Positions 5,548 through 20,551 of a DNA stretch of 32,000 nt are shown here, in pieces. The stretch is from Acaryochloris marina S15 (GTDB taxonomy: Bacteria > Cyanobacteriota > Cyanobacteriia > Thermosynechococcales > Thermosynechococcaceae): assembly GCF_018336915.1 (NCBI RefSeq), contig NZ_CP064923.1:4980001-5012000 (forward strand), given 5' to 3'. Each line of letters opens with the position of its first letter. Positions within the stretch are counted from its first letter, which is position 1. Under the pieces are notes generated by a model, which had not been told where the DNA came from, ran no database searches, and was given only the letters and a program-made list of their open reading frames with translations. The position numbers and the translations under genes are program-made.

Positions 5548-6732
5548 ATGGCTCCTTACGATTGGATTGATTCAGCGTTAACCACGATTCATAAAGCCCA
5601 TTGGTATCGCTCTGTCAAAACCATGAGCAGTCCAGGTCCAACGACTGTACTAAACGGCCAGGAGGTAATCAATTTTGCCAGTAATGATTATCTCGGTTTA
5701 GCTGGAGATTCCAGGTTAGCGGCAGCTGCGATCGCAGCTATCAATACCTGGGGAACCGGCAGTACGGGTTCGCGGTTACTCAGCGGTCATCGGGTCATTC
5801 ATGAGCAGTTGGAAGGTGCGATCGCAACCTGGAAACAAACTGAAGCTGCCATTGTTTATAGCTCAGGCTATCTCGCCAATATCGGCACCATTACGGCCTT
5901 AGTCAGTGGACGAGATTTGGTCCTGGCGGATGCCTACAACCATGCCAGCCTCAAAAATGGCGCACGTCTAAGTGGGGCCACCATCCATGAATTTGGCCAT
6001 GCCAATGTAGCAGAGTTGCGATCGCTCCTAGAAACCCATCGCTCCCACCATCGTCGCTGCCTTTTGGTGACCGATAGCGTCTTTAGTATGGATGGCGATT
6101 TATGCCCATTGCCGGAACTGATTGCCCTGGCTGAAGCCTATGACTGTATGCTCCTGATTGATGAAGCCCATGGGACTGGCGTTCTAGGGGCAACAGGGGC
6201 AGGCTGTGTAGAGCATTTTGGTTGTCGTGATACTGAACTCATCCAAATGGGGACGTTGAGTAAGGCATTAGGCAGTTTAGGAGGCTATGTGGCGGGTTCC
6301 GCCAAGCTGATTGATTACCTGCGCAATCGATCTACAAGCTGGATTTATACGACGGGACTCTCACCCGCAGATACGGCAGCAGCGTTGGCGGCGGTAGAGA
6401 TTATTCGAGAGGGGAATGAGTTGCGATCGCAACTTTGGCAACGGGTCAATCAGCTCAAGCAAGCCCTCTCCACCCAGCTTGCCCCTGAAGACGAACATCT
6501 AAACATGCAGCTCTTGCCCTCAAAGTCACCGATTCTTTGCGTGCAAATGCCCACACCTGCAGCCGTTTTGGCGGCCAGCCAGCAACTCCTTGATCAAGGG
6601 ATTTTTGCCCCAGCCATTCGCCCACCCACAGTCCCCACTAGTCGAATTCGGGTTTCGGTAATGGCCACCCATCAGCCGGAACAGATTGATCAGCTTATCG
6701 TTGCCTTAGGTGAGATAGCTCAGGGCAGCTAA
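5548..6732 (+). CDS. bioF: 8-amino-7-oxononanoate synthase
   Basis: Class II aminotransferase fold with the PLP-lysine motif GTLSKALGS, plus DEAHGTG and SNDYLGL motifs typical of BioF/KBL. The length is 394 aa. Confidence 0.92.
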
Positions 6733-6783
6733 ATCAGGTTAAGCAATAACTCTTGTCCTCAGTGATAGAAAGTATTTTCCCGA

Positions 6784-7203
6784 CTAGAGCTGGCTTAAGA
6801 GTTCAGTAGGGGAGTAAATGGGAAGCTGGCTGCTAATGAAATCTTTTGAATCACGGGTAACGATGCCATCCAATTGATTGAGGAGTGCGCAGGCAAGTTG
6901 AATACTGTCTTCAAAGTCTTTTAGCCCAAGACCGAGAGCAGTTTCGACTGTCTGGCGATCAACAGCACAAAATTGGAGACCGATCAGGAGTCGATGGACA
7001 GCAGAGATGGCAGCTTCACGACTTTCTGATTTACGGATGATGTAGAAAATATTGGTCAGGGTTGTTGCAGCAATTGCACCTACTACGTGACCGAGTTCAA
7101 TTTGCTCAAAGAGAGCAATTGCATTCTCGACAAAGGGGTCGCGTTCCAGGAGTACATCTAGGACAACATTGGTATCGATGAGAACTTTCACACGAAGGCT
7201 CAC
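6784..7203 (-). CDS. vapC: PIN-domain ribonuclease toxin (VapC family)
   Basis: The N-terminus VLIDTNVVLDVLL carries the PIN acidic residue, and there is a C-terminal VTRDSKDF motif. The GTG start overlaps the upstream antitoxin stop by 4 nt (GTGA). Confidence 0.85.
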   Translation of the reverse strand: MSLRVKVLIDTNVVLDVLLERDPFVENAIALFEQIELGHVVGAIAATTLTNIFYIIRKSESREAAISAVHRLLIGLQFCAVDRQTVETALGLGLKDFEDSIQLACALLNQLDGIVTRDSKDFISSQLPIYSPTELLSQL

Positions 7204-7439
7204 TGATATTTTTGGGTGAGATAATCTGTGTATTCTGCTTGCAATTCATGATCGCTAGAAGCTGCTTTAGGCCCCTTGGCGATACCCCGCAGTCCGGTAA
7301 GCGTCCCAGGCGGGATAGCCTGCGATTGAGAACTATTGAGCTGCTTATGATGGAGAAATTCGGCGAAGTTGAGGACTTCGTTGACTTGGCTTTCTGGGAG
7401 AGATTGAATAAGTTCGTAGAGCTTTTCTGCGGCTGTCAT
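7200..7439 (-). CDS. Antitoxin of the VapBC pair (DUF2281-like)
   Basis: A 79-aa protein whose N-terminus (KLYELIQSLPESQVNEVLNFAEFLHHKQ) resembles DUF2281 antitoxins. It is translationally coupled to the PIN gene. Confidence 0.7.
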   Translation of the reverse strand: MTAAEKLYELIQSLPESQVNEVLNFAEFLHHKQLNSSQSQAIPPGTLTGLRGIAKGPKAASSDHELQAEYTDYLTQKYQ

Positions 7440-7481
7440 GATGCTCGGCAGGTAGGTGGGGTAGTACTCATAATTATGGCT

Positions 7482-7505
7482 AAAGTTTTATGGATGGAAA
7501 ACTTT
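7482..7505 (-). promoter_or_regulatory. Inverted repeat upstream of the vapBC pair; candidate autoregulatory operator
   Basis: AAAGTTTT (7482-7489) and AAAACTTT (7498-7505) form 8-bp arms with an 8-bp spacer, 43-66 bp upstream of the antitoxin start. A separate 10-bp palindrome CGAAATTTCG lies at 7551-7560. Confidence 0.25.
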
Positions 7506-7583
7506 TATAGGAGCATTGCGCTGTTTTCAAGAGAGATCGTTCAGTATTTACGAAATTTCGAAACACTCCAAGTACAATATTGC

Positions 7584-7883
7584 TCATGATCCGGAGCTTT
7601 CGTTAGCTTTCGAGGCTCCACGATAATATTTTTGCCCAGAAATAATGAATTTCTCTACTTTACGCCAACCTTGTTTGTCAGATCTTTTTGGAGCTTTAAA
7701 GTCTAAACCCATTGAATAGGTCTGACCTCCACAATCAGGGCACTTGTACAAGCGGGAATTAGTTTGCTCTGCTTCCTTCCACTGCCCATTCTGCTGGTCA
7801 TTAGTCATGTAACGATTCGTCGCACCACTAGCTTGTGGACGCTTAAACGATTTTCGACATGTAAAACAAGCAAACTGCAACAA
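7584..7883 (-). CDS. Small basic zinc-ribbon protein, function unknown
   Basis: 99 aa with a TTG start. Two CxxC pairs (CFTC near the N-terminus, CPDC at about residue 48) are followed by a K/R-rich segment (DFKAPKRSDKQGWRKVEKF). I recognise no enzymatic motif. Confidence 0.55.
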   Translation of the reverse strand: MLQFACFTCRKSFKRPQASGATNRYMTNDQQNGQWKEAEQTNSRLYKCPDCGGQTYSMGLDFKAPKRSDKQGWRKVEKFIISGQKYYRGASKANESSGS

Positions 7884-8049
7884 ACTATCCTTTCCTAGAA
7901 TAAAAGCCTAAGGATTGAGAACATCTAACAGTCATTCAATGATATTGAGTGAACTTATGCAGATAACGTCACCGTTAAGCTGCACTCTTAGACAAATAGC
8001 TCTCACTTCACCGGAAAATCTCAAACAACATTCATATCAATCCAGATCC

Positions 8050-8301
8050 TCAAAAGAGATACTTATCCATCCGCCGCTGTTCTAGCAACATAGCCACATC
8101 TTGGTCAGTTGGTGCCAGTTTCTCTGTTTGAAGCAAACCTCGCATTCTTTGAGCAGCAGCGGCACGCTCAGGAGTAGAAACAAGGGAGTCATGAAGGGAT
8201 TCGACGATTGCCGTAACTAGTGCAAGGCGGTCGCTCGGTGGCAATTTGAAGACTTCGGCTTTTAATTCGGATAACAACATCGGCTTCAAAGCTTCAATCA
8301 T
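8050..8301 (-). CDS. Putative addiction-module antitoxin component (TIGR02574-like), with no adjacent toxin
   Basis: The N-terminal segment LLSELKAEVFKLPPSDRLALVTAIVESLHDS matches the Lxx..R..L...L..SL pattern of this antitoxin family. The 166 bp downstream have stops in all minus-strand frames. Confidence 0.55.
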   Translation of the reverse strand: MIEALKPMLLSELKAEVFKLPPSDRLALVTAIVESLHDSLVSTPERAAAAQRMRGLLQTEKLAPTDQDVAMLLEQRRMDKYLF

Positions 8302-8447
8302 GCAGGCTTATAGTCCATGATATTGCTGAATAGCCTTACCGATCCAGCCTTGCTTTCATATTGGATATCACGGGAAAATAAGCAAGGAAGTCTGTTATGA
8401 CCAGCTTAATGAAGCTCTGAAAGACAAAAAACTTGGGAGACAACGTT

Positions 8448-8900
8448 CTAAGGACGTTTTTTGACAAATTTCATCTCTCCTTGGAAATCACCCTCGGACT
8501 CAACGCCGATTGGAATCCAGTTGAGATGTAGATAAAAACCATAGGCTCTGAAATTCGGGTTATTGCCTGTGACTAACCAAATCTCTTCAATTTCTTTTGC
8601 CCAGAACCAAGTTTCAGTAACTTGCATTAGGGTACGTCCAGCTCCCCGCCCTTCAAAAGTAGGGCGGACGAACATGCCAACTATCGTTTTTTCTGTGGCA
8701 CTGGCAATGGAGAAGCCAATCGCTTGATCATCAATCTCAGCAATCCATGCACAACAGTCCGTCTCTAACATTTTGGTGACTGACTCTGGCGTAATACCCA
8801 GTTCAGCAATCTCTTCTCGGGATTGATAATTTTCGACAACGCTGGTTCGAATCTCAAACAGCGTCTCGACATCCTTCGGTTGAGCAATGCGGATATTCAT
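8448..8900 (-). CDS. GNAT family N-acetyltransferase
   Basis: 150 aa with an acetyl-CoA binding motif (VRPTFEGRGAGRTLM) in a GNAT-like beta-alpha arrangement. Confidence 0.85.
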   Translation of the reverse strand: MNIRIAQPKDVETLFEIRTSVVENYQSREEIAELGITPESVTKMLETDCCAWIAEIDDQAIGFSIASATEKTIVGMFVRPTFEGRGAGRTLMQVTETWFWAKEIEEIWLVTGNNPNFRAYGFYLHLNWIPIGVESEGDFQGEMKFVKKRP

Positions 8901-9442: not shown

Positions 9443-11122
9443 TTAACCTTCCTGCAGACGAGCTAGTAAGGGGGCAGCCCCGAGTAGCGTTTGGGTATAG
9501 GGGTGTTGAGGATTGGTGAAGATCTCTTCCGTGGGACCGATTTCGACGATCTTGCCCTTATTCATGACGGCGATGCGATCGCAAAAGAATCGCGCCACCC
9601 ACAAATCATGGGTAATAAATAGGTACGTTAAGTTGAAATCATCTTTCAAAGACTGCATCAACTCCAGCACCTGAGTTTGAATACTGGCATCCAGCATGCT
9701 CACGGGTTCGTCACAGATCACCAGTTTGGGTTGGGTAATGAGCGCTCTGGCGATAGCAACTCGCTGTTGCTGCCCTCCAGAAATATCGCTGGGGAACCGT
9801 TGGGCATAGTCCGTGGTGGGAGTCAGGCCGACCCGCTCCAACATGGCATGCATTTGTGACTGGGCCTCAGCCGGGGTTGCCAACTCATGAATCAGGAGCG
9901 GTTCAGCCACACTCTGGCCAATCTTCATCCGGGGATTCAGGCAGGCCCGTGGATCTTGGAAGATCATTTGAATTTGGCGGCGACATTGCCGCAGTGCCCG
10001 TCCCTCTAGCGTGGTCAACTCCCGCTTATCAAACTGAACGCTCCCCGCCGTCGGCCGCACAAGCTGCAAAATACTACGAGATAAAGTGCTCTTGCCACAG
10101 CCGGATTCTCCCACCAAGCCCAGGGTTTCGCCTGCATGAATATTTAAGGTAATCCCGTCTACGGCTTTGATGGCATCCGCAGGTTTAGAGAGGAGACGGG
10201 CAATAAAATTGGTTTCTAAGGAGTAATGTTGCTGCACATCTTGGAGCTGCAGCAGCACTGATTGTTCAGGTGGACTTTCTTCTATTTCAGGAGCTTCAGC
10301 GGCACTGGTTTGTAGATGGAGAGCCGCCTGCAGCAATGATTGGGTATAAGAGTGTTGTGGGTTGGTGAGGATTTCTTGAGCTGGGCCTAACTCGACCATT
10401 TTGCCTTGGTACATGACGGCAACGCGATCGCAATATTCACTCACCAATGCCAAATCATGGGAAATCAGCAGCAGTCCCATCTGACGCTCTTCACAGAGAC
10501 GCGTCACCTCTTTCAGAATTTGGGCCGCAACCGTAACATCCAAGCTGGTGGTAGGTTCATCGGCAATCAGCATTTTGGGGTCGAGGAGGAGCGCTAACGC
10601 AATCGCTACCCGCTGTCGCATCCCACCACTAAACTCATGGGGATATTGCGTCCATCGTTCTGCAGGGATATTAACGGCGCCCAGGGTATCTAAGACCTTA
10701 GTTTTAGCTTCCTCAGCCGAAAGCTTGGGTTGATGGACTTTCAGAGTCTCAAGGCAATGCTTTTTTACCGTCAACAACGGATTGAGGCGAGTCATCGGGT
10801 CCTGAAAGACCAGGGCAATTTCCTCACCTCGGAATCGCTGCAAATCTTTTCCCGTCAGGGTTAAAACCGATCGACCCGCAAAGTTAATCTCGCCTTCTAG
10901 TTGAGTTCCGGGGGGCAGCAACTGCATCAAGCCTCGCCCTATGGTGGACTTGCCGCAACCCGACTCTCCCACTAATCCCAGCCGTTCTCCAGCTCCCAGG
11001 GCAAAGGAGACTTGATTGACGGCCCAACTCTGGGTCTCGGCTCCCCGCTGCTGAGCATAGGCAATCTTCAGATCGTTAACATGCAGCAAGCCTGCGGAAG
11101 AACTCATATCCTGTGGGCGCAT
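9443..11122 (-). CDS. ABC transporter ATP-binding protein with two fused ATPase domains (Dpp/Opp/Nik peptide-nickel class, YejF/GsiA-like)
   Basis: Two Walker A motifs (GESGCGKST twice), two signature motifs (FSGGMRQR, ISGGQQQR) and two Walker B motifs (LIADEPTT, VICDEPVS). The first ATG is at 11122 and another is at 11107; the ORF is open to TTG 11191. Confidence 0.9.
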   Translation of the reverse strand: MRPQDMSSSAGLLHVNDLKIAYAQQRGAETQSWAVNQVSFALGAGERLGLVGESGCGKSTIGRGLMQLLPPGTQLEGEINFAGRSVLTLTGKDLQRFRGEEIALVFQDPMTRLNPLLTVKKHCLETLKVHQPKLSAEEAKTKVLDTLGAVNIPAERWTQYPHEFSGGMRQRVAIALALLLDPKMLIADEPTTSLDVTVAAQILKEVTRLCEERQMGLLLISHDLALVSEYCDRVAVMYQGKMVELGPAQEILTNPQHSYTQSLLQAALHLQTSAAEAPEIEESPPEQSVLLQLQDVQQHYSLETNFIARLLSKPADAIKAVDGITLNIHAGETLGLVGESGCGKSTLSRSILQLVRPTAGSVQFDKRELTTLEGRALRQCRRQIQMIFQDPRACLNPRMKIGQSVAEPLLIHELATPAEAQSQMHAMLERVGLTPTTDYAQRFPSDISGGQQQRVAIARALITQPKLVICDEPVSMLDASIQTQVLELMQSLKDDFNLTYLFITHDLWVARFFCDRIAVMNKGKIVEIGPTEEIFTNPQHPYTQTLLGAAPLLARLQEG

Positions 11123-11265
11123 AACGTTTACGTCAAGGCTGTTTACGTCGGCAGAGACTCTAAAATCACCAGTATAGCCAGCAACCCTCAACCGGGTCTG
11201 ATTTTTGCACGCAGGGTCAAATACTGTCTATGATGAGAGTATATTGAAAAGTTTTGTGAAGACCT

Positions 11266-11898
11266 TTGTTAGCAAACGCTGATACCAATAATCAAGTTCC
11301 CCTCACCTCCACCTGGCATCATTTAGATGTCTTATGGCAAGCCGATCAGGCTCGCATTCAGCCCGGCCTTCCTTACTATCAACTCTCTCCCACCTGGCAA
11401 ATGTTGATTTTGGGAGATGGCTCTCCCACCCGCCATTTGCAGCTCCTCACGGGTGAGCCGACGGAAGTTGACGTGATTGATATGTCCTTTGTCGGGGCTG
11501 AGCAAGACAATGCCCCTGACTTAATCAAAGCGGTTCCTGGTCCTCGATTACGCCGCCAGGTCTGGCTACGGACCCCTTCGGGTCAGCGCTTAGCCTATGC
11601 GACCTCTTGGTGGGAAGCCAGCCATGTGGATGAGTATTTACAAAACCGCTCTCTACCGATTTGGGCTAGCTTGTCCCAGTCTCGTACTGAATTGTTCAGA
11701 GATATTCGCCAAGTTTTGTGTGGTCAATCCGAGGCGTTATCTAAAGCTTTCGATCATCCAGGACCGTTTTGGGGCCGTTACTATCTATTTTGGCATGATG
11801 GTCAGCCCTTGACCTTGATTTATGAGGTTTTCTCTCCCCATCTCAATCAGTACTTAGGACCTGTATCCAGCAATCTCCAGTCTACTCAGGTGTCATAG
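11266..11898 (+). CDS. Chorismate lyase family protein (UbiC-like / DUF98)
   Basis: The core LILGDGSPTRHLQLLTGEPTEVDVI and the C-terminal RRQVWL...YATSWW pattern resemble cyanobacterial chorismate pyruvate-lyase-like proteins. The start is TTG and is uncertain. Confidence 0.6.
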   Translation: MLANADTNNQVPLTSTWHHLDVLWQADQARIQPGLPYYQLSPTWQMLILGDGSPTRHLQLLTGEPTEVDVIDMSFVGAEQDNAPDLIKAVPGPRLRRQVWLRTPSGQRLAYATSWWEASHVDEYLQNRSLPIWASLSQSRTELFRDIRQVLCGQSEALSKAFDHPGPFWGRYYLFWHDGQPLTLIYEVFSPHLNQYLGPVSSNLQSTQVS

Positions 11899-12012
11899 TC
11901 AGGGCTTAGTGTCCCGAGCACGTCTCAACAGAACAGTGCCCATAATTTATATGTTGACAACTACTACATATAAATACACTCAGTAGATTAAGAAAACCCT
12001 CTCATGTCAGGT

Positions 12013-12609
12013 TTACTCTGTAGGTTTTGGTGGCTGCCAAGACAATAAAATTTCCAGAGTCATCAACAACCCAAGAGATATGATTGGGATACTCGTCATG
12101 ATGGCTCCCCAAATACCTGGTGCTTTAATAAATAAGCCTGATCTATATTGAAACAATCCTAAAGCACCTCCTACAAAGTAGAAGATGGCTAGTAGAAAGC
12201 CAAATTTCGAGCGTGTACTTCGACTTGCTGCAAGGAACCCCCACCCTAAACAAAAATAACTAACTTCTGGGTTGAGAACGGTAAATGGTAGAGCTGGAGC
12301 AATAGCAAAAAACTGACCAGAAAAAGCTATTTTTATACCAAAAAATATTGTGAAGCTACCAACAACTATGCTGTAAATTTTGCATAGTATAGGGAAGGCA
12401 AAAAACAATATAACCAACAATATAGAGAAGTCTAAATTTTCCGTAAATATAATCCACCCCAACAGAAACAAAACAGATATATATCGCAGCCCATCGAAGA
12501 GTCTCCGATATAAATCCTCATACTTCTGTAAGTTTGTTTCCTGTATTCGCTTGTCTAGTTCTATTTCTGCTTGTTTAACTCTCTCGTAATTTTTAATATT
12601 TCCAGGCAT
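12013..12609 (-). CDS. Polytopic membrane protein, function unknown (low-GC island gene 3)
   Basis: 198 aa. About 40 N-terminal charged, helix-prone residues (NYERVKQAEIELDKRIQETNLQKYEDLYRR) are followed by roughly 6 hydrophobic segments. A strong SD-like GAGGTGAGAGG lies upstream of the ATG. I recognise no family motif. Confidence 0.6.
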   Translation of the reverse strand: MPGNIKNYERVKQAEIELDKRIQETNLQKYEDLYRRLFDGLRYISVLFLLGWIIFTENLDFSILLVILFFAFPILCKIYSIVVGSFTIFFGIKIAFSGQFFAIAPALPFTVLNPEVSYFCLGWGFLAASRSTRSKFGFLLAIFYFVGGALGLFQYRSGLFIKAPGIWGAIMTSIPIISLGLLMTLEILLSWQPPKPTE

Positions 12610-12699
12610 ATATCTTACCTCTCACCTCTAATTCTGAATAAGATATTATTTCTTTTAAAAATCTTTATTCGTGATGATTATATTTTTTATATAGCTATA

Positions 12700-13230
12700 C
12701 TATGGTATCGGCTCATCAGCCCATGGGTCTAGATAATATTTGTAGCCTGTGTGAGTATCAATAACAGAACCATCATCGTTATTGCCACGCGCATAGAAGT
12801 AGAAAAACTCATATTGATACCTTCTCAAAATTGCTGCTAATTCTATCCATCCCTCCAATTGGTAGAAGTCAAAATCAATTCCTAAGACAAATCCCAATCC
12901 AGCTGATTGTCGTAGAATATCTATGAAATCAGATTTTTCTAGTTCTTTGTCTAATAAAATATCTTTATCGATCACTCCAAAATTCACAATTTTTTTGAAT
13001 CGGTCAATCGTAACTCGACCTACTGTATCTCGTTCCACTTCTATCGTAATCTTGTTATTCAGCGGCGTGAATCTCAGCACATAATCTGGCCATGGATTAC
13101 TTGCTGCTTGTAGAGATGCAAGCTGCCTAGAAGTTAATACAATACTTCTATTCCACTCATATATTTCTTGACATAGAAATTTATCTATATAAAATCTAAT
13201 CCACTTTTTTTCATGGCAGGAATAAATCAT
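12700..13230 (-). CDS. Hypothetical soluble protein, acidic and rich in aromatic residues (low-GC island gene 2)
   Basis: 176 aa, with AAGAGG 5 nt upstream of the ATG. There are no TM segments and no motif I can assign. The C-terminus is YQYEFFYFYARGNNDDGSVIDTHTGYKYYLDPWADEPIP. Confidence 0.6.
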   Translation of the reverse strand: MIYSCHEKKWIRFYIDKFLCQEIYEWNRSIVLTSRQLASLQAASNPWPDYVLRFTPLNNKITIEVERDTVGRVTIDRFKKIVNFGVIDKDILLDKELEKSDFIDILRQSAGLGFVLGIDFDFYQLEGWIELAAILRRYQYEFFYFYARGNNDDGSVIDTHTGYKYYLDPWADEPIP

Positions 13231-13290
13231 TATTGCCTCTTAAAAGTGTTTACGGATAAAACTTTTTACGGCTCTCACCAAGAATGTATT

Positions 13291-14184
13291 TCATTGTGAT
13301 TTATCTATTTGAAACTGTTTCTTTTGAGTTAGGCACATTGCTACCCCTTTCTCGTAATAAGCTGATTCATTAATAAAAATAGGGTAAGCAATTGATTTAC
13401 CTTGATAGATAATCGTTTTTCCATCAAAGGTCAGAAAGAGAGGGTTACCAGGATGTAGAGCTGCATAATCTTGAAACTGAATCTGAGGATGAATCATAGC
13501 TTTAATTTCGCCTTCTTGATTTCTGGGATAGTCAATAGAGTCACAATATTCGTAAAGGGTGAGTGACTTATTTTTAGATCTAATTTTGTTGCGATTATAC
13601 TGCTCTACATAATTTAGAATTAAATGTACTAATGATTCAGTTTTTTGTAGTAACTCCGCATCAAGTGTTCCATGAGAAAGTGGACCTACCTCAATACAAA
13701 TTCTATGCTTAGCAATTGATCGTAATGAATCTTTCCCACGACCTGACTTCTCAGAGCTATAAATTTTAATTTCTGGAAATAAGAAGCTTAAGTAAGCAGA
13801 TAAATCTAAAATAAAAGGATCAAGATGATCCAGAATTATCATCAGCCCGACATTAGAAGTGGTGGAATGTTGATCAACAACTAGATCTATAGGTGTATTC
13901 CCAGACAGCCCAAATTGATTACTGATTTCTTGGGCTCGTTGATTTTCATAAAAGCTATTATTCTTTTCATAATCCAGTGCTTGAAAGTTAAAACAACGAT
14001 TCAAATCTTTATCGATATAGCGTACACATTTATCTATTGCCTTCGGATTACCAAATAGTGTCAATGTTTCAAAACTAGATCTATTAATAAGCTGAGGAGA
14101 TTGCTCAAATTTTTTAATAAGATATACCCCAATCAGTTCATTCCCGTGAGTCCCACCCACCAGCAAAACACGTTGGATATTCAT
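13291..14184 (-). CDS. Aspartoacylase family zinc amidohydrolase (AstE/AspA superfamily; low-GC island gene 1)
   Basis: The protein is collinear with aspartoacylase along its full length. Matching segments are VGGTHGNELIG (Zn His/Glu), RYIDKDLNR, DQHSTTSN (third Zn ligand), CIEVGP (catalytic Glu), DYPRNQEGEI, LHPGNPLFLTFDGK and INESAYYEKG. Confidence 0.88.
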   Translation of the reverse strand: MNIQRVLLVGGTHGNELIGVYLIKKFEQSPQLINRSSFETLTLFGNPKAIDKCVRYIDKDLNRCFNFQALDYEKNNSFYENQRAQEISNQFGLSGNTPIDLVVDQHSTTSNVGLMIILDHLDPFILDLSAYLSFLFPEIKIYSSEKSGRGKDSLRSIAKHRICIEVGPLSHGTLDAELLQKTESLVHLILNYVEQYNRNKIRSKNKSLTLYEYCDSIDYPRNQEGEIKAMIHPQIQFQDYAALHPGNPLFLTFDGKTIIYQGKSIAYPIFINESAYYEKGVAMCLTQKKQFQIDKSQ

Positions 14185-14287
14185 ATCTTTCTCTTTATCG
14201 TTTAGCTTGCGTCACTAAGCTTTTTGCTTTGATGACAACAGCATATAGAAAAACACTATGATAGAATCACTGTTATTGACATTGTTA

Positions 14288-14305
14288 TATGACTAATTCG
14301 TCATA
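14288..14305. promoter_or_regulatory. Dyad TATGAC-N6-GTCATA in the divergent LysR / island-operon intergenic region
   Basis: Perfect 6-bp arms sit 8 bp upstream of the LysR ATG. A second dyad, AGCTT-N8-AAGCT, lies at 14204-14221, closer to the aspartoacylase-family gene. Both are candidate LTTR sites. I could not fit a clean T-N11-A spacing. Confidence 0.25.
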
Positions 14306-14312
14306 ACAAGAG

Positions 14313-15245
14313 ATGAAGCCTCCAAAATGGCATGAACTAGAATTTCGACATCTTGAATATGCGATCGCACTCAAGCAACACAAAGGATTTGTTCAAGCCG
14401 CCATTGCTCTGGAGTTAGACCAAGGCTTTTTAAGTAAGCAGATTCAACGACTAGAAAGAAGGCTGGGCTTTACCCTCTTTGATCGCACAACCCGTCCCCT
14501 AGGACTCACCCATGAGGGACAGGCTTTCTTAACGCGAGCAGAGCAAATCATTGAACAAGCCCAAAGTGCCGTTGAATTGTCTCAGGATATTCAGGCAGGG
14601 AACCGTGGGCGATTAGATGTAGGAATCAATACATCCATTGCCAATAGCCAATTACCCCGCATTATCAAAACTTTTCGTCAGCAGTTCCCATTTGTAAATC
14701 TAGCCCTTCATGAATTAGCGTCCTATGACCAGATTGAACAATTACGAAATCATCAAATCGATGTAGGTTTCTTCCATCAACACAATTTACAAAGTTTGAG
14801 CCCAGAAGATAACGAGATTTTTGCAGATACTTTAGTCCTCCAGGAGTCCCTCGTTCTTGTTCTACCTGAACAACATCCCTGTGCTAAAAAGTTAACTGTT
14901 GCTCTTGCAGAGCTTAACGGCCAAGATTTTGTACTCCCCCCACAGGCTTTGCTCTATAGTTTGCGAGATCAGATTGATCAGCTTTGTCTGAGAGCAAACT
15001 GTAAGCCCATCATTGTCCAAGAAGCAAGCTGGATTACAACTGTGCTGAGTTTGGTGGCTGGTGGTATGGGGGTGTCACTCTTACCCGCAAATGTCAGAAA
15101 CCTGCAGCGTTCTGGGGTAGTTTATCGCAATATCCAAGAGCCCTCTCCCCTATTGGACATTGTTGCCGTTCGGCGCACAAACAATCCATCAACGACGCTG
15201 GGAAATTTCCTCAAAGTGATTGAAGGTTTATTGAAGATCGAGTGA
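14313..15245 (+). CDS. LysR family transcriptional regulator
   Basis: N-terminal wHTH (LEYAIALKQHKGFVQAAIALELDQGFLSKQIQRLERRLGFTLFDR) followed by a LysR substrate-binding domain; 310 aa. It is divergent from the three-gene low-GC cluster. Confidence 0.92.
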   Translation: MKPPKWHELEFRHLEYAIALKQHKGFVQAAIALELDQGFLSKQIQRLERRLGFTLFDRTTRPLGLTHEGQAFLTRAEQIIEQAQSAVELSQDIQAGNRGRLDVGINTSIANSQLPRIIKTFRQQFPFVNLALHELASYDQIEQLRNHQIDVGFFHQHNLQSLSPEDNEIFADTLVLQESLVLVLPEQHPCAKKLTVALAELNGQDFVLPPQALLYSLRDQIDQLCLRANCKPIIVQEASWITTVLSLVAGGMGVSLLPANVRNLQRSGVVYRNIQEPSPLLDIVAVRRTNNPSTTLGNFLKVIEGLLKIE

Positions 15246-15478
15246 GAATATCGAAGCTGGACAGACAAAAGACCCCAGTCATCGGCTTAGTCTCCGTCTC
15301 ATCATGATGCTTTTTGAGATTGTCTACATACCAGGTTATCGATCCCATATCCCAGACTATTGCTTTTCGGGGTTTGATCGTTCTGGGCCAAGATTGGCAC
15401 TCGTAAAATATTATTTGCGTTTCAAGGTGCTGATATGCGCTTAAATAAGTGAGGATTCTTTACGTTACTTATAAATTT

Positions 15479-17062
15479 GTGGCCGACTCAGCTCCCAAAC
15501 GCCGTCGCTCCCTAGCGAGTATTGCAACCATTGTTGCGATCGCAACCCTGATCAGCAAGGTCGTCGGTCTAGTGCGACAGCAATCAATTGCGGCTGAATT
15601 TGGGGTCGGTCCCGAAGTAGATGCCTATAACTTTGCCTACGTTATCCCTAGCTTTCTGTTTATTCTGCTGGGAGGAGTGAATGGCCCCTTTCACAGTTCC
15701 GTCGTCAGCGTCCTTGCCAAACATCCCAAAAAGGATGCCGCAGCCTTAATTGAAACCGTCAATACCTTAGTTGGCATCTTGCTGTTGCTGCTGACCGCAG
15801 GGTTAATGCTAACTGCTGATCCACTGATCACCATGCTAGCGCCAGGGGTCTCCACCGATGTCCACACCATGGCGGTGGAACAGCTCAGAATTATGGCTCC
15901 CCTAGCCTTCTTATCAGGACTGATTGGTATCGGCTTCGGCACCCTAGTAGCGTCCGATCAATATTGGCTCCCATCCATTAGTCCTTTGCTATCTAGCGTC
16001 ACCGTCATCATTGGTGTGTTGTTTCTCACGGATCATGTGGGGGCCTCCGTTATGGCCTGGGGAACGCTAGCGGGTGGGTTACTGCAATGGTTAGTCCAAA
16101 TCCCTGCTCAGTGGGGATCCGGCATGGGAACTCTGAGGCTTCGCTTCGATTTCAACCGACCGGGTGTGAAAGAAATCGGTAAGCTCATGGGGCCGGCCAC
16201 CCTCTCCTCTGGGATGCTGCTGATTAGCGTCGCTATTAGCTTATTCTTTGCCTCTCAATTAAAGGAAGGCTCCGCCTCTGCCTTAACCTACGCTCAGCTC
16301 TTATTCCTAACGCCTTTGGGCATTCTTTCCAACGTCATCCTGGTTCCCTACATGCCGATTTTTTCCCAATTGGCAGCCCCAGAAAGTTGGACTGATCTAA
16401 AAGACCGGATTCGCCAAAGCCTAGTGCTCACCGCCATGAGTATGATGCCTACAGGTGCGCTGATGTCCGTCTTAGCATTGCCTGCTGTACGAATTGTCTA
16501 TCAAAGGGGAGCCTTCGATGATTCCGCCTCCCAACTAGTGGCCTCTCTCTTAGTGGTTTATGCCTTTGGCATGTTCTTTTACCTAGGCCGAGATATTTTC
16601 GTCCGGGTGTTCTACGCCCTGGGAGATGGCAATGTTCCCCTGCTGATTAGTTTATTGGGCTTATTCTTTAATGCCATTTTTTGTTTCTTCTTCACCAAAA
16701 CCTTTGGTGCACCGGGGTTAGCTATGGCCACCGTCGGAGTCCAGGTCTTCTCCATGGCCGCTCTCGTCTGGATTCTGAATAAACGCTTGCATGGGCTACC
16801 TTGGGCGACCACAGGAGGTCCAATTTTGGCCTTGGCTGTCAGCAGCCTGATCTGTGGCTTCACAGCCTGGATAGCCTTATATGGCTGTCAGCTAATCCTG
16901 GGAACAGAAGGAATCATCAGACAGCTCGTGACCCTAAGTGTATCGGCAGGTGCAGGGTTATTGGTCTTTGCCGGACTCGTGATTCAACTCAAGTTACCGG
17001 AGATGGATTTCTTTGTGGATCGGTTGCGTCAAAAGCTTCCCTTTCTAGCCCGTAAGTCTTAG
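15479..17062 (+). CDS. murJ: Lipid II flippase MurJ (MviN)
   Basis: Polytopic protein with a MurJ-type N-terminus (IATLISKVVGLVRQQSIAAEFGVGPEVDAYNFAYVIP). The likely start is GTG 15479; the ORF is open from GTG 15449. Confidence 0.92.
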   Translation: MADSAPKRRRSLASIATIVAIATLISKVVGLVRQQSIAAEFGVGPEVDAYNFAYVIPSFLFILLGGVNGPFHSSVVSVLAKHPKKDAAALIETVNTLVGILLLLLTAGLMLTADPLITMLAPGVSTDVHTMAVEQLRIMAPLAFLSGLIGIGFGTLVASDQYWLPSISPLLSSVTVIIGVLFLTDHVGASVMAWGTLAGGLLQWLVQIPAQWGSGMGTLRLRFDFNRPGVKEIGKLMGPATLSSGMLLISVAISLFFASQLKEGSASALTYAQLLFLTPLGILSNVILVPYMPIFSQLAAPESWTDLKDRIRQSLVLTAMSMMPTGALMSVLALPAVRIVYQRGAFDDSASQLVASLLVVYAFGMFFYLGRDIFVRVFYALGDGNVPLLISLLGLFFNAIFCFFFTKTFGAPGLAMATVGVQVFSMAALVWILNKRLHGLPWATTGGPILALAVSSLICGFTAWIALYGCQLILGTEGIIRQLVTLSVSAGAGLLVFAGLVIQLKLPEMDFFVDRLRQKLPFLARKS

Positions 17063-17467: not shown

Positions 17468-17916
17468 CAATTTATATTGATAAATTTGCTGCCCTAAATA
17501 TCTTGCCTCTTACCCATTACGCTAGTAATAGTTCGCTCAAATATTTATGCTTTTAGCATGAGAGAAATAAAATATTTATCTCTATAAAAAAATAAATATT
17601 TCACACGTCACTTGTATTAGAGATTACATTTTGGGGCTGTTCTTTTTTCTATCTTGTCTAAGGAATAGAGGAATGTCCCAGGTAAAACCAGCGGACAACC
17701 TCCCAGCCAAACCTCATTTACGAAAAAGCGTAAAGTTATTGCACGCCAAGGCTTTGTCATGGATTGACGCCCACGATGCTGATGGCATCTTAGCGAAGAT
17801 GTAATCTCAATATAAGATTTGTCCCAAACATCGAATAGTAGAATGTAGCCATAGCCCTAAAAGATTACTTAAAGCCATCATTCAAATTTTTGAATGTGAC
17901 TGTCCTGAGTCTAAAA

Positions 17917-19635
17917 ATGCCAAAAATTTTAATCATTGAGGATGAACCTCAAATCCGCGACATCATTCAAGAAATTTTAGAGTGTGAAGGGTATCGAACT
18001 CTGGAAGCAGACAATGGCCTAACGGGGTTACAACTGGCCCAGCAAAACCCTCCAGACCTCATTGTTTGTGATGTCATGATGCCGGAGTTAGACGGTTTTG
18101 ATGTTTTAAAGGGGTTGAGAGAGAATCCAGGCATTGGCAGCATTCCGATGATCTTTTTAACAGCTAAAACAGATCGGGCCAGTGTGCGGAAGGGGATGAA
18201 TTTAGGGGCAGATGACTACATCACCAAGCCATTTACCCATTTAGAACTGTTAAGCGCGATTGACGCACGACTCAAGAAACAAGCGCTAGTCACTCAACAG
18301 TACACGCAAACCATTCAAGGGCTAGAAGCAGGGCTAAATGCTCTAACCTACTATGACCATTTAACCCAGTTACCCAATCGTCGCTTACTCGAAGAGCAGT
18401 TCCACCATATTCAGGCAGAGAAACAAATAGCTGATACCTTAGATGCTCTAGTTTTAGTCGGTATCGATCGATTTGAGTGGCTTAAAAGTACCCTGGGCAA
18501 CTCTTTCAGTGATCAACTCGTTCAAGCGATCACCCAGCAATTGTCCGCCCATCGCTATATGGGCAACTACGCCATGGCGATGGTGGCTCGTATTGAGGCG
18601 GATCAGTTCGCCATCATTCCCCGAAACATTAAGTCTCGCCAAGATCTCGACCAGTTTGCGAAACAAATTTTGGACATCTTAGCCACACCTTTCTATGTGG
18701 TGGATCAGGAGTTATGTATTACACCTAGCATTGGCATGACCTGCTATCCCAAAGGCAGTAGTGATATTGGCACCTTGATTAGCAATGCCGAAATAGCGAT
18801 GTATCAGTCCAAACAACAAACCGGACCGAGTGCAGCGTTTTATCTACCGACGATGCGATCGCAATGTTCTCAAGCCCTCACCATGGCAGCGCGATTACGT
18901 CATGCCCTAGACAAAAACGAATTGCGCCTTTACTACCAACCCCATATTGACTTGCAGACAAGCCAAGTCATAGGAGCCGAAGCCCTGCTGCGCTGGCATC
19001 ATCCGGAGTGGGGAGTATTATCGCCTAATGTCTTTATCCCCATTGCCGAAGAAACAGACTTAATTTTAGCCATTGGCGAGTGGGTGCTGCGAACCTCCTG
19101 CCAGCAAGTCAAGCGGTGGCAGAAAACCTGTGGGCGGCCGTTGCAAATACTAGTCAATTTGTCTCCTCGACAGCTGATGCAGCCCGCTTTACCTCAGATG
19201 CTCCATGAACTACTGTCAGAGGCTGCTTTAGACCCAAGCAGTTTAGTTTTAGAGTTAACGGAAAGCACATTGATGCAAGATCCAGATCTTGCCCTCAAAG
19301 TGATGCATCAAATTAAGGCAGCAGGGATACGTCTATCCGTCGATGATTTTGGCACCGGCTACTCTTCCTTAAGCTATTTACAGCGTTTTCCCTTGGATAC
19401 CCTGAAAATTGATCGAGGCTTTATCCATGAAATTGATTGTCAACCTGCCAATGCAGCGATCACGACGGCCATTATCCAAATGGGCCATAACCTGGGATTA
19501 TCATTGATTGGCGAAGGGGTAGAAACCCTGGCTGAACGAAAATTTTTACTAGACCACCAATGTGATGGCATCCAAGGCTATTTGATCAGTCCTCCCTTAC
19601 CGGCAGCTGAACTCTTAAGGTACTTCCCAGAATAA
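17917..19635 (+). CDS. Response regulator with REC, degenerate GGDEF and EAL domains (probable c-di-GMP phosphodiesterase)
   Basis: REC domain: DLIVCDVMMP, LTAK, ITKPF. GGDEF domain: the signature is replaced by EADQF, and DxD is replaced by GID in VGIDRF. EAL domain: EALLRW, NLSPRQ, ELTES, DDFGTGYSSL, KIDRGF, EGVET and QGY are all present. The likely start is ATG 17917 (MPKILIIEDEP). Confidence 0.92.
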   Translation: MPKILIIEDEPQIRDIIQEILECEGYRTLEADNGLTGLQLAQQNPPDLIVCDVMMPELDGFDVLKGLRENPGIGSIPMIFLTAKTDRASVRKGMNLGADDYITKPFTHLELLSAIDARLKKQALVTQQYTQTIQGLEAGLNALTYYDHLTQLPNRRLLEEQFHHIQAEKQIADTLDALVLVGIDRFEWLKSTLGNSFSDQLVQAITQQLSAHRYMGNYAMAMVARIEADQFAIIPRNIKSRQDLDQFAKQILDILATPFYVVDQELCITPSIGMTCYPKGSSDIGTLISNAEIAMYQSKQQTGPSAAFYLPTMRSQCSQALTMAARLRHALDKNELRLYYQPHIDLQTSQVIGAEALLRWHHPEWGVLSPNVFIPIAEETDLILAIGEWVLRTSCQQVKRWQKTCGRPLQILVNLSPRQLMQPALPQMLHELLSEAALDPSSLVLELTESTLMQDPDLALKVMHQIKAAGIRLSVDDFGTGYSSLSYLQRFPLDTLKIDRGFIHEIDCQPANAAITTAIIQMGHNLGLSLIGEGVETLAERKFLLDHQCDGIQGYLISPPLPAAELLRYFPE

Positions 19636-20504: not shown

Positions 20505-20512
20505 GGGCGTTT

Positions 20513-20551
20513 TATTACACCTAAAAAAAGGTTGTATTACACCTAAAAAAA
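20513..20551. repeat. Perfect 17-bp direct repeat TATTACACCTAAAAAAA x2, period 22 bp
   Basis: The copies are at 20513-20529 and 20535-20551, located 23 bp beyond the ppa stop and about 90-125 bp upstream of the SDR start (both genes on the minus strand). Confidence 0.7.

Follow-up and report, generated by a model that had tools for sequence, protein, structure and literature searches.

The locus described here raises the question of what a sharply AT-rich group of genes, headed by a homologue of human aspartoacylase, provides to a cyanobacterium, and how it came to lie beside a divergently transcribed LysR-type regulator. It is found in a stretch of 32,000 nucleotides (nt) from Acaryochloris marina S15 (NZ_CP064923.1, positions 4,980,001 to 5,012,000), referred to throughout as the window, where three minus-strand genes, aspA (gene 1), gene 2 and gene 3, stand back to back with a plus-strand LysR gene. 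The reading that we favour, with modest confidence, is that this is a LysR-controlled aspartoacylase module which is exchanged among Acaryochloris strains as a compositionally foreign allelic cassette, and which provides an inducible N-acyl-aspartate deacylase with a dedicated membrane partner. The families to which the enzyme and the regulator belong are known and already annotated. The four window proteins are identical to GenBank QUY42002–QUY42005, which are annotated as hypothetical, hypothetical, aspartoacylase and LysR family regulator, respectively. The features on which the argument rests are listed below in window coordinates, with lengths in amino acids (aa) and isoelectric points (pI) for the proteins.

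11899–15390, no strand: segment missing from the syntenic site of A. marina MBIC11017, as shown by blastn with locus L014
11945–11975, no strand: A/T-only hairpin with perfect 10-nt arms, between the convergent ubiC-like gene and gene 3
12013–12609, minus strand: gene 3, basic (pI 9.1) 198-aa membrane protein (by hydropathy) of an unnamed family, QUY42002
12700–13230, minus strand: gene 2, acidic (pI 5.0) soluble 176-aa protein of a rare unnamed family, in the slot between aspA and gene 3, QUY42003
13291–14184, minus strand: gene 1 (aspA), ASPA-type aspartoacylase of 297 aa, QUY42004 (NCBIfam equivalog, Pfam and alignment with human ASPA)
13790–13850, no strand: recombination breakpoint within aspA, as seen against Acaryochloris sp. 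'Moss Beach' (identity per 60 alignment columns)
14185–14312, no strand: divergent control region of 128 nt with three dyads, between aspA and LysR
14313–15245, plus strand: LysR-type transcriptional regulator of 310 aa, divergent from aspA, QUY42005 (Pfam HTH_1 and LysR_substrate)

The Enzyme and Its Divergent Regulator

Gene 1 is predicted to be a zinc amidohydrolase of the ASPA type whose N-acyl-aspartate binding site is intact, and the original prediction, which had called it an aspartoacylase-family zinc deacylase, is upheld by Pfam, by NCBIfam and by alignment with the active site of human ASPA. Both AstE/AspA domains, the catalytic domain and the barrel-sandwich hybrid, are recovered by Pfam (PF24827 at 3.6e-37 and PF04952 at 4.9e-24), and the NCBIfam aspartoacylase equivalog NF002601, for which the cut-off is 180 bits, matches residues 1–293 at 373.2 bits. 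It matches human ASPA at E = 1e-65. In that alignment, H13/E16/H106, E165, R55/N62/R63, R155 and Y276 fall on human H21/E24/H116, E178, R63/N70/R71, R168 and Y288 (2o4h), which we take to be, in turn, the His/Glu/His zinc ligands, the catalytic Glu and the carboxylate-binding Arg63, Asn70, Arg71, Arg168 and Tyr288. These active-site residues are invariant or nearly so across 30 cyanobacterial homologues, and sequence matches in the PDB at E ≤ 1e-5 are to ASPA and ACY3 only. More than 2,300 homologues were found, most of them cyanobacterial and 55–65% identical, and the ratio of nonsynonymous to synonymous substitution rates (dN/dS) for aspA is about 0.2. By shared annotation and family membership, the window aspA and Synechocystis slr1705 belong to one widespread cyanobacterial aspartoacylase family. 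For slr1705, the literature found covers just the binding of NtcA at its promoter, plus annotation (PMC5714215, PMC5318462).

The regulator carries an N-terminal HTH_1 domain (PF00126 at 1.3e-16) and a C-terminal LysR_substrate domain (PF03466 at 5.3e-41). It scores below the cut-off of every named LysR equivalog in NCBIfam, the top one being AlsR (215 vs. 430 bits), and its dN/dS is 0.11. LysR and aspA are an old, widespread cyanobacterial pair, and LysR is the evolutionarily conserved divergent neighbour of aspA. Homologues of the regulator are divergent from aspA in 'Moss Beach' (99% identity), in A. marina NIES-2412 (77%) and in loci L186 (73%) and L187 (71%), with identity outside near-identical strains reaching 77% at most; the arrangement holds in all five scored close relatives for which upstream sequence is available (L100, L101, L102, L186, L187). 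The closest relatives outside Acaryochloris that carry the pair are L186, with an aspA of 66% identity, and Leptothoe spongobia (L187), with one of 64%. At greater distance, of 80 cyanobacterial aspA loci taken from metagenomes, at least 22 have a divergent LysR gene 23–260 nt upstream whose product is 37–65% identical, and the same arrangement, in the same range of identity, is present on two Nostoc plasmids (L104, L105), where it adjoins relaxase or integrase genes.

The 128-nt region that the two genes share had been described as facing the LysR gene with two dyads; both are there, TATGAC-N6-GTCATA at 14288–14305 and ATAG-N7-CTAT, a T-N11-A form, at 14245–14259, and a third, AGCTT-N8-AAGCT at 14204–14221, can be added. 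The blocks AGTCAT and GGTGATTCTATCAT(A/G)G of this region are kept in NIES-2412 and in two metagenome LysR-aspA pairs whose LysR is just 53–56% identical. An NtcA-like GTA-N8-TAC site is not present in 14185–14312.

An AT-Rich Block Within the Window

The composition of the locus departs strongly from that of its surroundings, the background in these comparisons being the window. The block at 11940–14312 has a GC content of 34.5%, compared with 48.3% for the remainder of the window; every 500-nt segment from 12001 to 14500 lies at 0.32–0.38, and both sides lie at about 0.45–0.53. Segments of the same size outside the block have a mean GC of 0.481 with a standard deviation of 0.021 and a minimum of 0.443, which places the block about 6.5 standard deviations low. 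It is also the strongest tetranucleotide outlier of the window. At third codon positions, GC is 0.25 in aspA, 0.30 in gene 2, 0.33 in gene 3 and 0.40 in LysR, compared with 0.51–0.56 in the flanking ABC, ubiC and murJ genes. The abrupt shift in composition that had been proposed from counts over single lines is thus borne out by sliding GC, tetranucleotide frequencies and third-position GC. HIP1 sites (GCGATCGC) are absent between 10424 and 14361, and this gap is not significant, given that the block would be expected to hold just 1.44 sites (Poisson P = 0.24); the original caution in treating it as weak support was thus well placed.

The block holds three minus-strand open reading frames (ORFs), at 13291–14184, 12700–13230 and 12013–12609, separated by 60 and 90 nt. 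Purine-rich, ribosome-binding-like motifs (AAAGAGAAAG, AAGAGG and GAGGTGAGAGG) lie immediately 5' of the three start codons. This layout is as first described. Part of what had been claimed for the left edge also stands: the hairpin exists, with perfect 10-nt arms at 11945–11954 and 11966–11975. It is not energetically remarkable, since its stem consists of A/U pairs only (−7 to −11 kcal/mol) and its z-score against shuffled sequence is about −0.8; it is possibly a weak, undistinctive two-way terminator. A match to the Rfam His_leader family was dismissed as sub-threshold (E = 0.69).

Exchange of the Cassette Between Strains

Among close strains, the cassette is present, absent or replaced. 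A. marina MBIC11017 is syntenic with the window as far as the ubiC stop (window 11898) and again from 15391 onwards, and a second murJ paralogue lies in between (the ORFs of L014 10634–12540). In Acaryochloris sp. IP29b, ubiC is followed by different genes and the cassette is not at the site. In A. marina NIES-2412, LysR, aspA (70% identity) and a gene for a lipoprotein-like protein of 172 aa are found at a different locus, adjoining bpMoxR and VWA genes. Because the MBIC11017 gap spans 11899–15390, the strain-variable segment includes LysR. Of the original claim that a 2.4-kb trio had been inserted beside LysR, the patchy distribution is therefore confirmed by MBIC11017, 'Moss Beach' and NIES-2412, and the proposed unit has to be widened to take in the regulator.

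The most informative comparison is with 'Moss Beach', where the order is murJ, LysR, aspA, a gene for a 142-aa protein, a gene 3 homologue, a second murJ, IS66 remnants, an abhydrolase gene and ubiC. In the part that begins at 13848 and extends to the right over LysR and murJ, 57–60 of every 60 alignment columns are identical to the window; from about 13790 leftwards to the aspA stop, the figure falls to 36–50 of 60 (about 70%), and beyond that the two sequences cannot be aligned. In other words, LysR and the first 112 or so codons of aspA are 98–100% identical, and the rest of aspA is swapped together with the downstream genes. Among the ORFs of 9500–16500 there is no integrase, the window contains no tRNA, and no direct repeats flank the segment. 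Given a breakpoint inside aspA and none of these hallmarks, Acaryochloris strains appear to exchange the cassette by homologous recombination. The AT-rich character travels with the gene: in all three Acaryochloris versions, the GC content of aspA is about 0.11–0.12 below that of its flanks, compared with a mean deficit of about 0.03 in other cyanobacteria. Locus L186 shows a GC dip of its own, to 0.35–0.40 against a background of 0.50–0.55.

Two further observations concern this site. A second, divergent murJ stands between ubiC and the conserved murJ in MBIC11017 (L014 10716–12437, 573 aa) and in 'Moss Beach' (L100 10666–12336, 556 aa), and the window strain is without it. The 'Moss Beach' aspA (L100 7949–8864) is called as a 26-aa ORF overlapping a 287-aa ORF, and a 1-nt gap relative to window 14088–14146 marks a frameshift, which could be the mark of a pseudogene or an assembly error.

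Gene 3 and the Interchangeable Slot

The original prediction had found no motif for genes 2 and 3, and this is still the case, as neither protein matches a family in Pfam, NCBIfam, PADLOC or PHROGs; a PDB profile search also returned no match for gene 3 and nothing credible for gene 2. Both genes are under purifying selection (dN/dS of 0.36–0.43 for gene 2 and 0.29–0.50 for gene 3) and hence are real coding genes. Relatives of the two were found neither in 72,556 plasmids nor in IMG/VR viral contigs.

According to its hydropathy profile, the gene 3 protein has five or six hydrophobic segments, which come after a charged helix at the N terminus. Members of its family were found in six distinct loci; in five of these, which are diverged but lie within the aspA clade nearest to the window, the gene follows aspA at a distance of one slot. 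No member occurs in 79 aspA loci that are more distant or in 80 control loci. The five loci are as follows.

Window-type strains: gene 3 identity 97–100%, slot occupied by gene 2
L011: gene 3 identity 70%, slot occupied by a gene 2 homologue
'Moss Beach' (L100): gene 3 identity 54%, slot occupied by the 142-aa 'X' protein
L186: gene 3 identity 38%, slot occupied by a 149-aa 'X' protein
L106: gene 3 identity 26–32%, slot occupied by a 63-aa ORF only

The intervening slot is interchangeable. The 149-aa protein of L186 is homologous to the 142-aa protein of 'Moss Beach' (E = 7e-6) and unrelated to gene 2, so that the gene 2 family and this second family, called 'X' here, are alternative small acidic proteins at one position. 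A common origin of gene 2 with the 'Moss Beach' slot protein, or with the 172-aa protein downstream of aspA in NIES-2412, was rejected by hhalign (probabilities of 0.2% and 0.1%, respectively). Co-evolution of aspA with the slot protein was likewise rejected. The aspA alleles do not cluster by the type of slot protein and all are about equally distant (59–66%), and there is therefore no sign that the two have evolved together. When the neighbourhood of the trio is compared across genomes, as the original prediction had proposed, the link between gene 3 and aspA proves recurrent and that between gene 2 and aspA does not hold, gene 2 having an interchangeable position here and unrelated contexts elsewhere.

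The gene 2 family is small. Its relatives form three clusters among 5.8 billion proteins, and a profile search found eight representatives among 1.84 billion proteins, one of them probably spurious; a Pfam scan of nine relatives gave a sole match, the WG_beta_rep domain of one fusion protein. An AlphaFold2 model from three sequences was unusable, with a predicted local distance difference test score (pLDDT) of 40. The model from nine sequences has a mixed alpha/beta fold, a pLDDT of 77.7 and a predicted template modelling score (pTM) of 0.76. Foldseek matches of this model were judged meaningless, both in the PDB (best E = 0.14, template modelling (TM) score 0.25) and in BFVD, where the best were sliding-clamp-like proteins (E = 8e-3, TM score 0.18).

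The surroundings of the more remote relatives were also recorded. One gene 2 relative lies directly after GmrSD_N and HNH nuclease genes (L094 491–2777), another adjoins a GNAT acetyltransferase gene split into two ORFs (L012 234–1341), and a third forms the C-terminal half of a WG_beta_rep fusion protein (P0011, L096 1896–2903). In a JGI metagenome (3300079091; L005 847–9419), the branch of the gene 3 family that is not accompanied by aspA occurs with a Gp49/HTH toxin-antitoxin pair and has a YdjM membrane hydrolase gene directly upstream. Several genes of unknown families and a tyrosine integrase gene share that region, and a ParA-like gene is nearby in L006.

Proposed Function and Competing Explanations

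In the mechanism that we propose, LysR would bind the TATGAC-N6-GTCATA and ATAG-N7-CTAT sites. If the aspA transcript began 30–40 nt upstream of the ATG, the dyads would lie at roughly −75 and −35; positions near −35 and −75 are the usual spacing of LysR activation and recognition sites. The regulator would sense an N-acyl-aspartate-type ligand, or the product of that ligand, and in response activate aspA, gene 2 and gene 3, and the aspartoacylase would free aspartate and a carboxylic acid. Gene 3 may then handle the substrate or the product at the membrane, by uptake or by efflux, a role that we suggest because the family is repeatedly found adjacent to aspA and encodes a membrane protein. 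Gene 2 would serve as an accessory or adaptor protein. A bolder version holds that LysR, aspA, a small acidic protein and gene 3 constitute an undescribed, horizontally exchanged cyanobacterial module, in which an ASPA-type deacylase is combined with a new membrane family and with alternative adaptors (gene 2 or 'X') for taking up, processing or neutralising an N-acyl-aspartate-like metabolite, signal or antimetabolite. We regard this version as doubtful; if it were true, the allelic diversity of the cassette would reflect different ligands.

Several points weigh against an inducible deacylase module with a dedicated membrane partner. Co-transcription of aspA, gene 2 and gene 3 and their dependence on LysR are features that we infer from sequence, as are the substrate of the enzyme and the roles given to genes 2 and 3. 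Promoter scans, like terminator scans, returned no more matches than in shuffled sequence. A demonstrated substrate for a bacterial aspartoacylase of the ASPA type was not found in the literature searched, nor was a known transporter resembling gene 3 found in Pfam, NCBIfam or the PDB. In cyanobacteria generally, the genes downstream of aspA are not conserved, with a lipoprotein-like gene in this position in NIES-2412 and a PLA2-like gene in Leptothoe. The gene 2 family occurs in at least four unrelated contexts that lack aspA, namely beside a GNAT gene that is split in two (L012), downstream of GmrSD_N and HNH genes with another LysR gene alongside (L093, L094), after a TauE gene (L095) and in the WG-repeat fusion (P0011), and one branch of the gene 3 family is without aspA, in a mobile-element-like context adjoining a YdjM hydrolase gene. 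The variable downstream genes and the independent occurrences of both families, together with the filling of the slot by unrelated proteins in other strains and the higher dN/dS of genes 2 and 3 (0.3–0.5) relative to aspA (0.2), are what would be seen if the functional unit were LysR and aspA only, and genes 2 and 3 were unrelated, lineage-specific cargo in a recombination-prone AT-rich slot. This makes cargo a contender, one that we find somewhat doubtful, since chance hitch-hiking fits poorly with a gene 3 that follows aspA in five loci in which aspA is 63–87% and gene 3 is 26–70% identical; moreover, the three genes share a strand and are separated by short gaps with no convincing terminator found between them.

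The allelic diversity of the cassette and the interchange of its small acidic proteins could also be taken as the signature of conflict, with a toxin/immunity, antimetabolite resistance or phage defence module under diversifying selection, in which gene 3 would encode an effector or immunity protein of the membrane. Over its C-terminal two-thirds, aspA is only 59–66% identical at the amino acid level between strains whose flanks are about 98% identical, the breakpoint falls within the gene, the slot protein is swapped between strains and the AT-rich composition persists. LysR-aspA pairs near relaxase or integrase genes on plasmids, and a homologue of gene 2 that immediately follows GmrSD_N and HNH genes, point in the same direction. 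We nevertheless consider this improbable. The toxin-processing or immunity option of the original prediction gained no positive support, as the three proteins have no toxin or immunity match (none in Pfam, none in PADLOC and a best E of 0.36 in PHROGs) and no relatives in viral contigs. In addition, aspA is homologous over its full length, retains an intact active site of metabolic type and has no secretion or delivery domain, and dN/dS is below 1 for all genes. It is highly improbable, in our estimation, that the cassette is ancestral at this site and was lost from MBIC11017-type strains, its AT-richness being intrinsic to the genes. 'Moss Beach' has LysR and aspA at the same site, by murJ, along with the second murJ and the abhydrolase gene that are retained by other strains, which fits differential deletion; in most cyanobacteria, the GC content of aspA is a little below that of its flanks (mean about −0.03), and there is no integrase, tRNA or direct repeat that would mark an insertion. 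However, the drop in GC at this locus (−0.11 to −0.14) is about fourfold what is usual, and the NIES-2412 pair lies at a different locus. Between Acaryochloris strains, aspA is 70% and LysR 77% identical, compared with 96% for the neighbouring core gene ubiC, and the mosaic breakpoint shows the import of a foreign allele.

Other Features of the Window

A DUF2281 and PIN toxin-antitoxin-like pair (genes at about 7459–8114, minus strand) lies in roughly 1.7 kb of GC 0.40–0.44 at 6729–8455. This region is almost wholly without a counterpart at the syntenic site of MBIC11017, and it varies even among the near-identical strains L001–L004, with extra small ORFs in some and a truncated PIN gene in others. 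Three HIP1 sites, at 1445, 1526 and 1607, are spaced exactly 81 nt apart, with a GC skew of −0.34 at 1501–2000; Tandem Repeats Finder reports no array at 1445–1607. A short GC dip (0.364) is seen at 17501–18000, near the 3' end of a GGDEF/EAL response-regulator gene and the gap to a DUF6737 gene. At 20509–20551, a 22-nt unit (GTTGTATTACACCTAAAAAAAG) occurs twice in tandem with 95% matches.

Significance of the Locus

Close homologues of the human brain aspartoacylase are found in bacteria, most of all in cyanobacteria, and a paper that shows their substrate or role was not found. The main value of the locus is the handle that it offers on the role of the bacterial aspartoacylase: the LysR protein can be used as a ligand sensor, and presence or absence of the cassette among near-identical Acaryochloris strains provides natural knock-outs. 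Two or three small protein families without a Pfam or NCBIfam model emerge as well, those of gene 2, gene 3 and 'X', and the locus documents in Acaryochloris the replacement of an allele by homologous recombination inside a metabolic gene. A published description of the LysR-aspA pairing, of the order aspA, slot gene and gene 3, or of any of the three families was not found in the literature searched. If the downstream genes are cargo, the finding shrinks to an ordinary accessory gene pair.

Comparison With Known Systems

Within the AstE/AspA-M14 superfamily, the CphZ/AotO cyanophycin dipeptide hydrolases resemble the window enzyme in being zinc amidohydrolases with an aspartyl amide substrate, and CphZ is a member of the M14_PaAOTO_like subfamily with about 22% identity to AstE (PMC9974463). 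An identification of aspA as the cyanophycin dipeptidase CphZ was rejected on subfamily, as aspA is of the ASPA/ACY3 subtype, and no cyanophycin genes were found adjoining it. The nearest known enzymes are those of the aspartoacylase family (human ASPA, mouse ACY3 and Synechocystis slr1705 'aspA'; NF002601). With human ASPA the window protein shares the two-domain build, the zinc-binding residues, the catalytic Glu and the Arg/Asn/Arg/Arg/Tyr cage. The window aspA is distinguished by being AT-rich and strain-variable, and it has a putative dedicated LysR and two unnamed genes downstream.

CbbR, BenM/CatM and AlsR are examples of LysR regulators with a divergently transcribed target operon. The window regulator is like these classical systems in its HTH_1 and LysR_substrate domains, its divergent 128-nt region, its T-N11-A dyads and a pairing that is conserved over many genomes. 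It differs in scoring below every named equivalog cut-off. A counterpart in overall design is found on the Vibrio furnissii plasmid pVFBJ07-1 (L189, 57963–61419), where a LysR gene and an NhaC-family transporter gene are transcribed divergently, the latter preceding an aspartoacylase gene, with an IS5 transposase and ParAB adjoining. Both loci thus pair a divergent LysR gene with a predicted operon in which genes for a membrane protein and an aspartoacylase stand together. The V. furnissii LysR and aspartoacylase are only 24% and 36% identical to those of the window, and the two LysR proteins are not orthologous. The V. furnissii membrane protein is a recognised transporter encoded upstream of the aspartoacylase gene, in a putative operon, whereas the window gene 3 is unnamed and downstream. 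By analogy, the V. furnissii arrangement lends support to a logic in which a regulator, a membrane protein and a deacylating enzyme would work together, as we propose for the Acaryochloris cassette.

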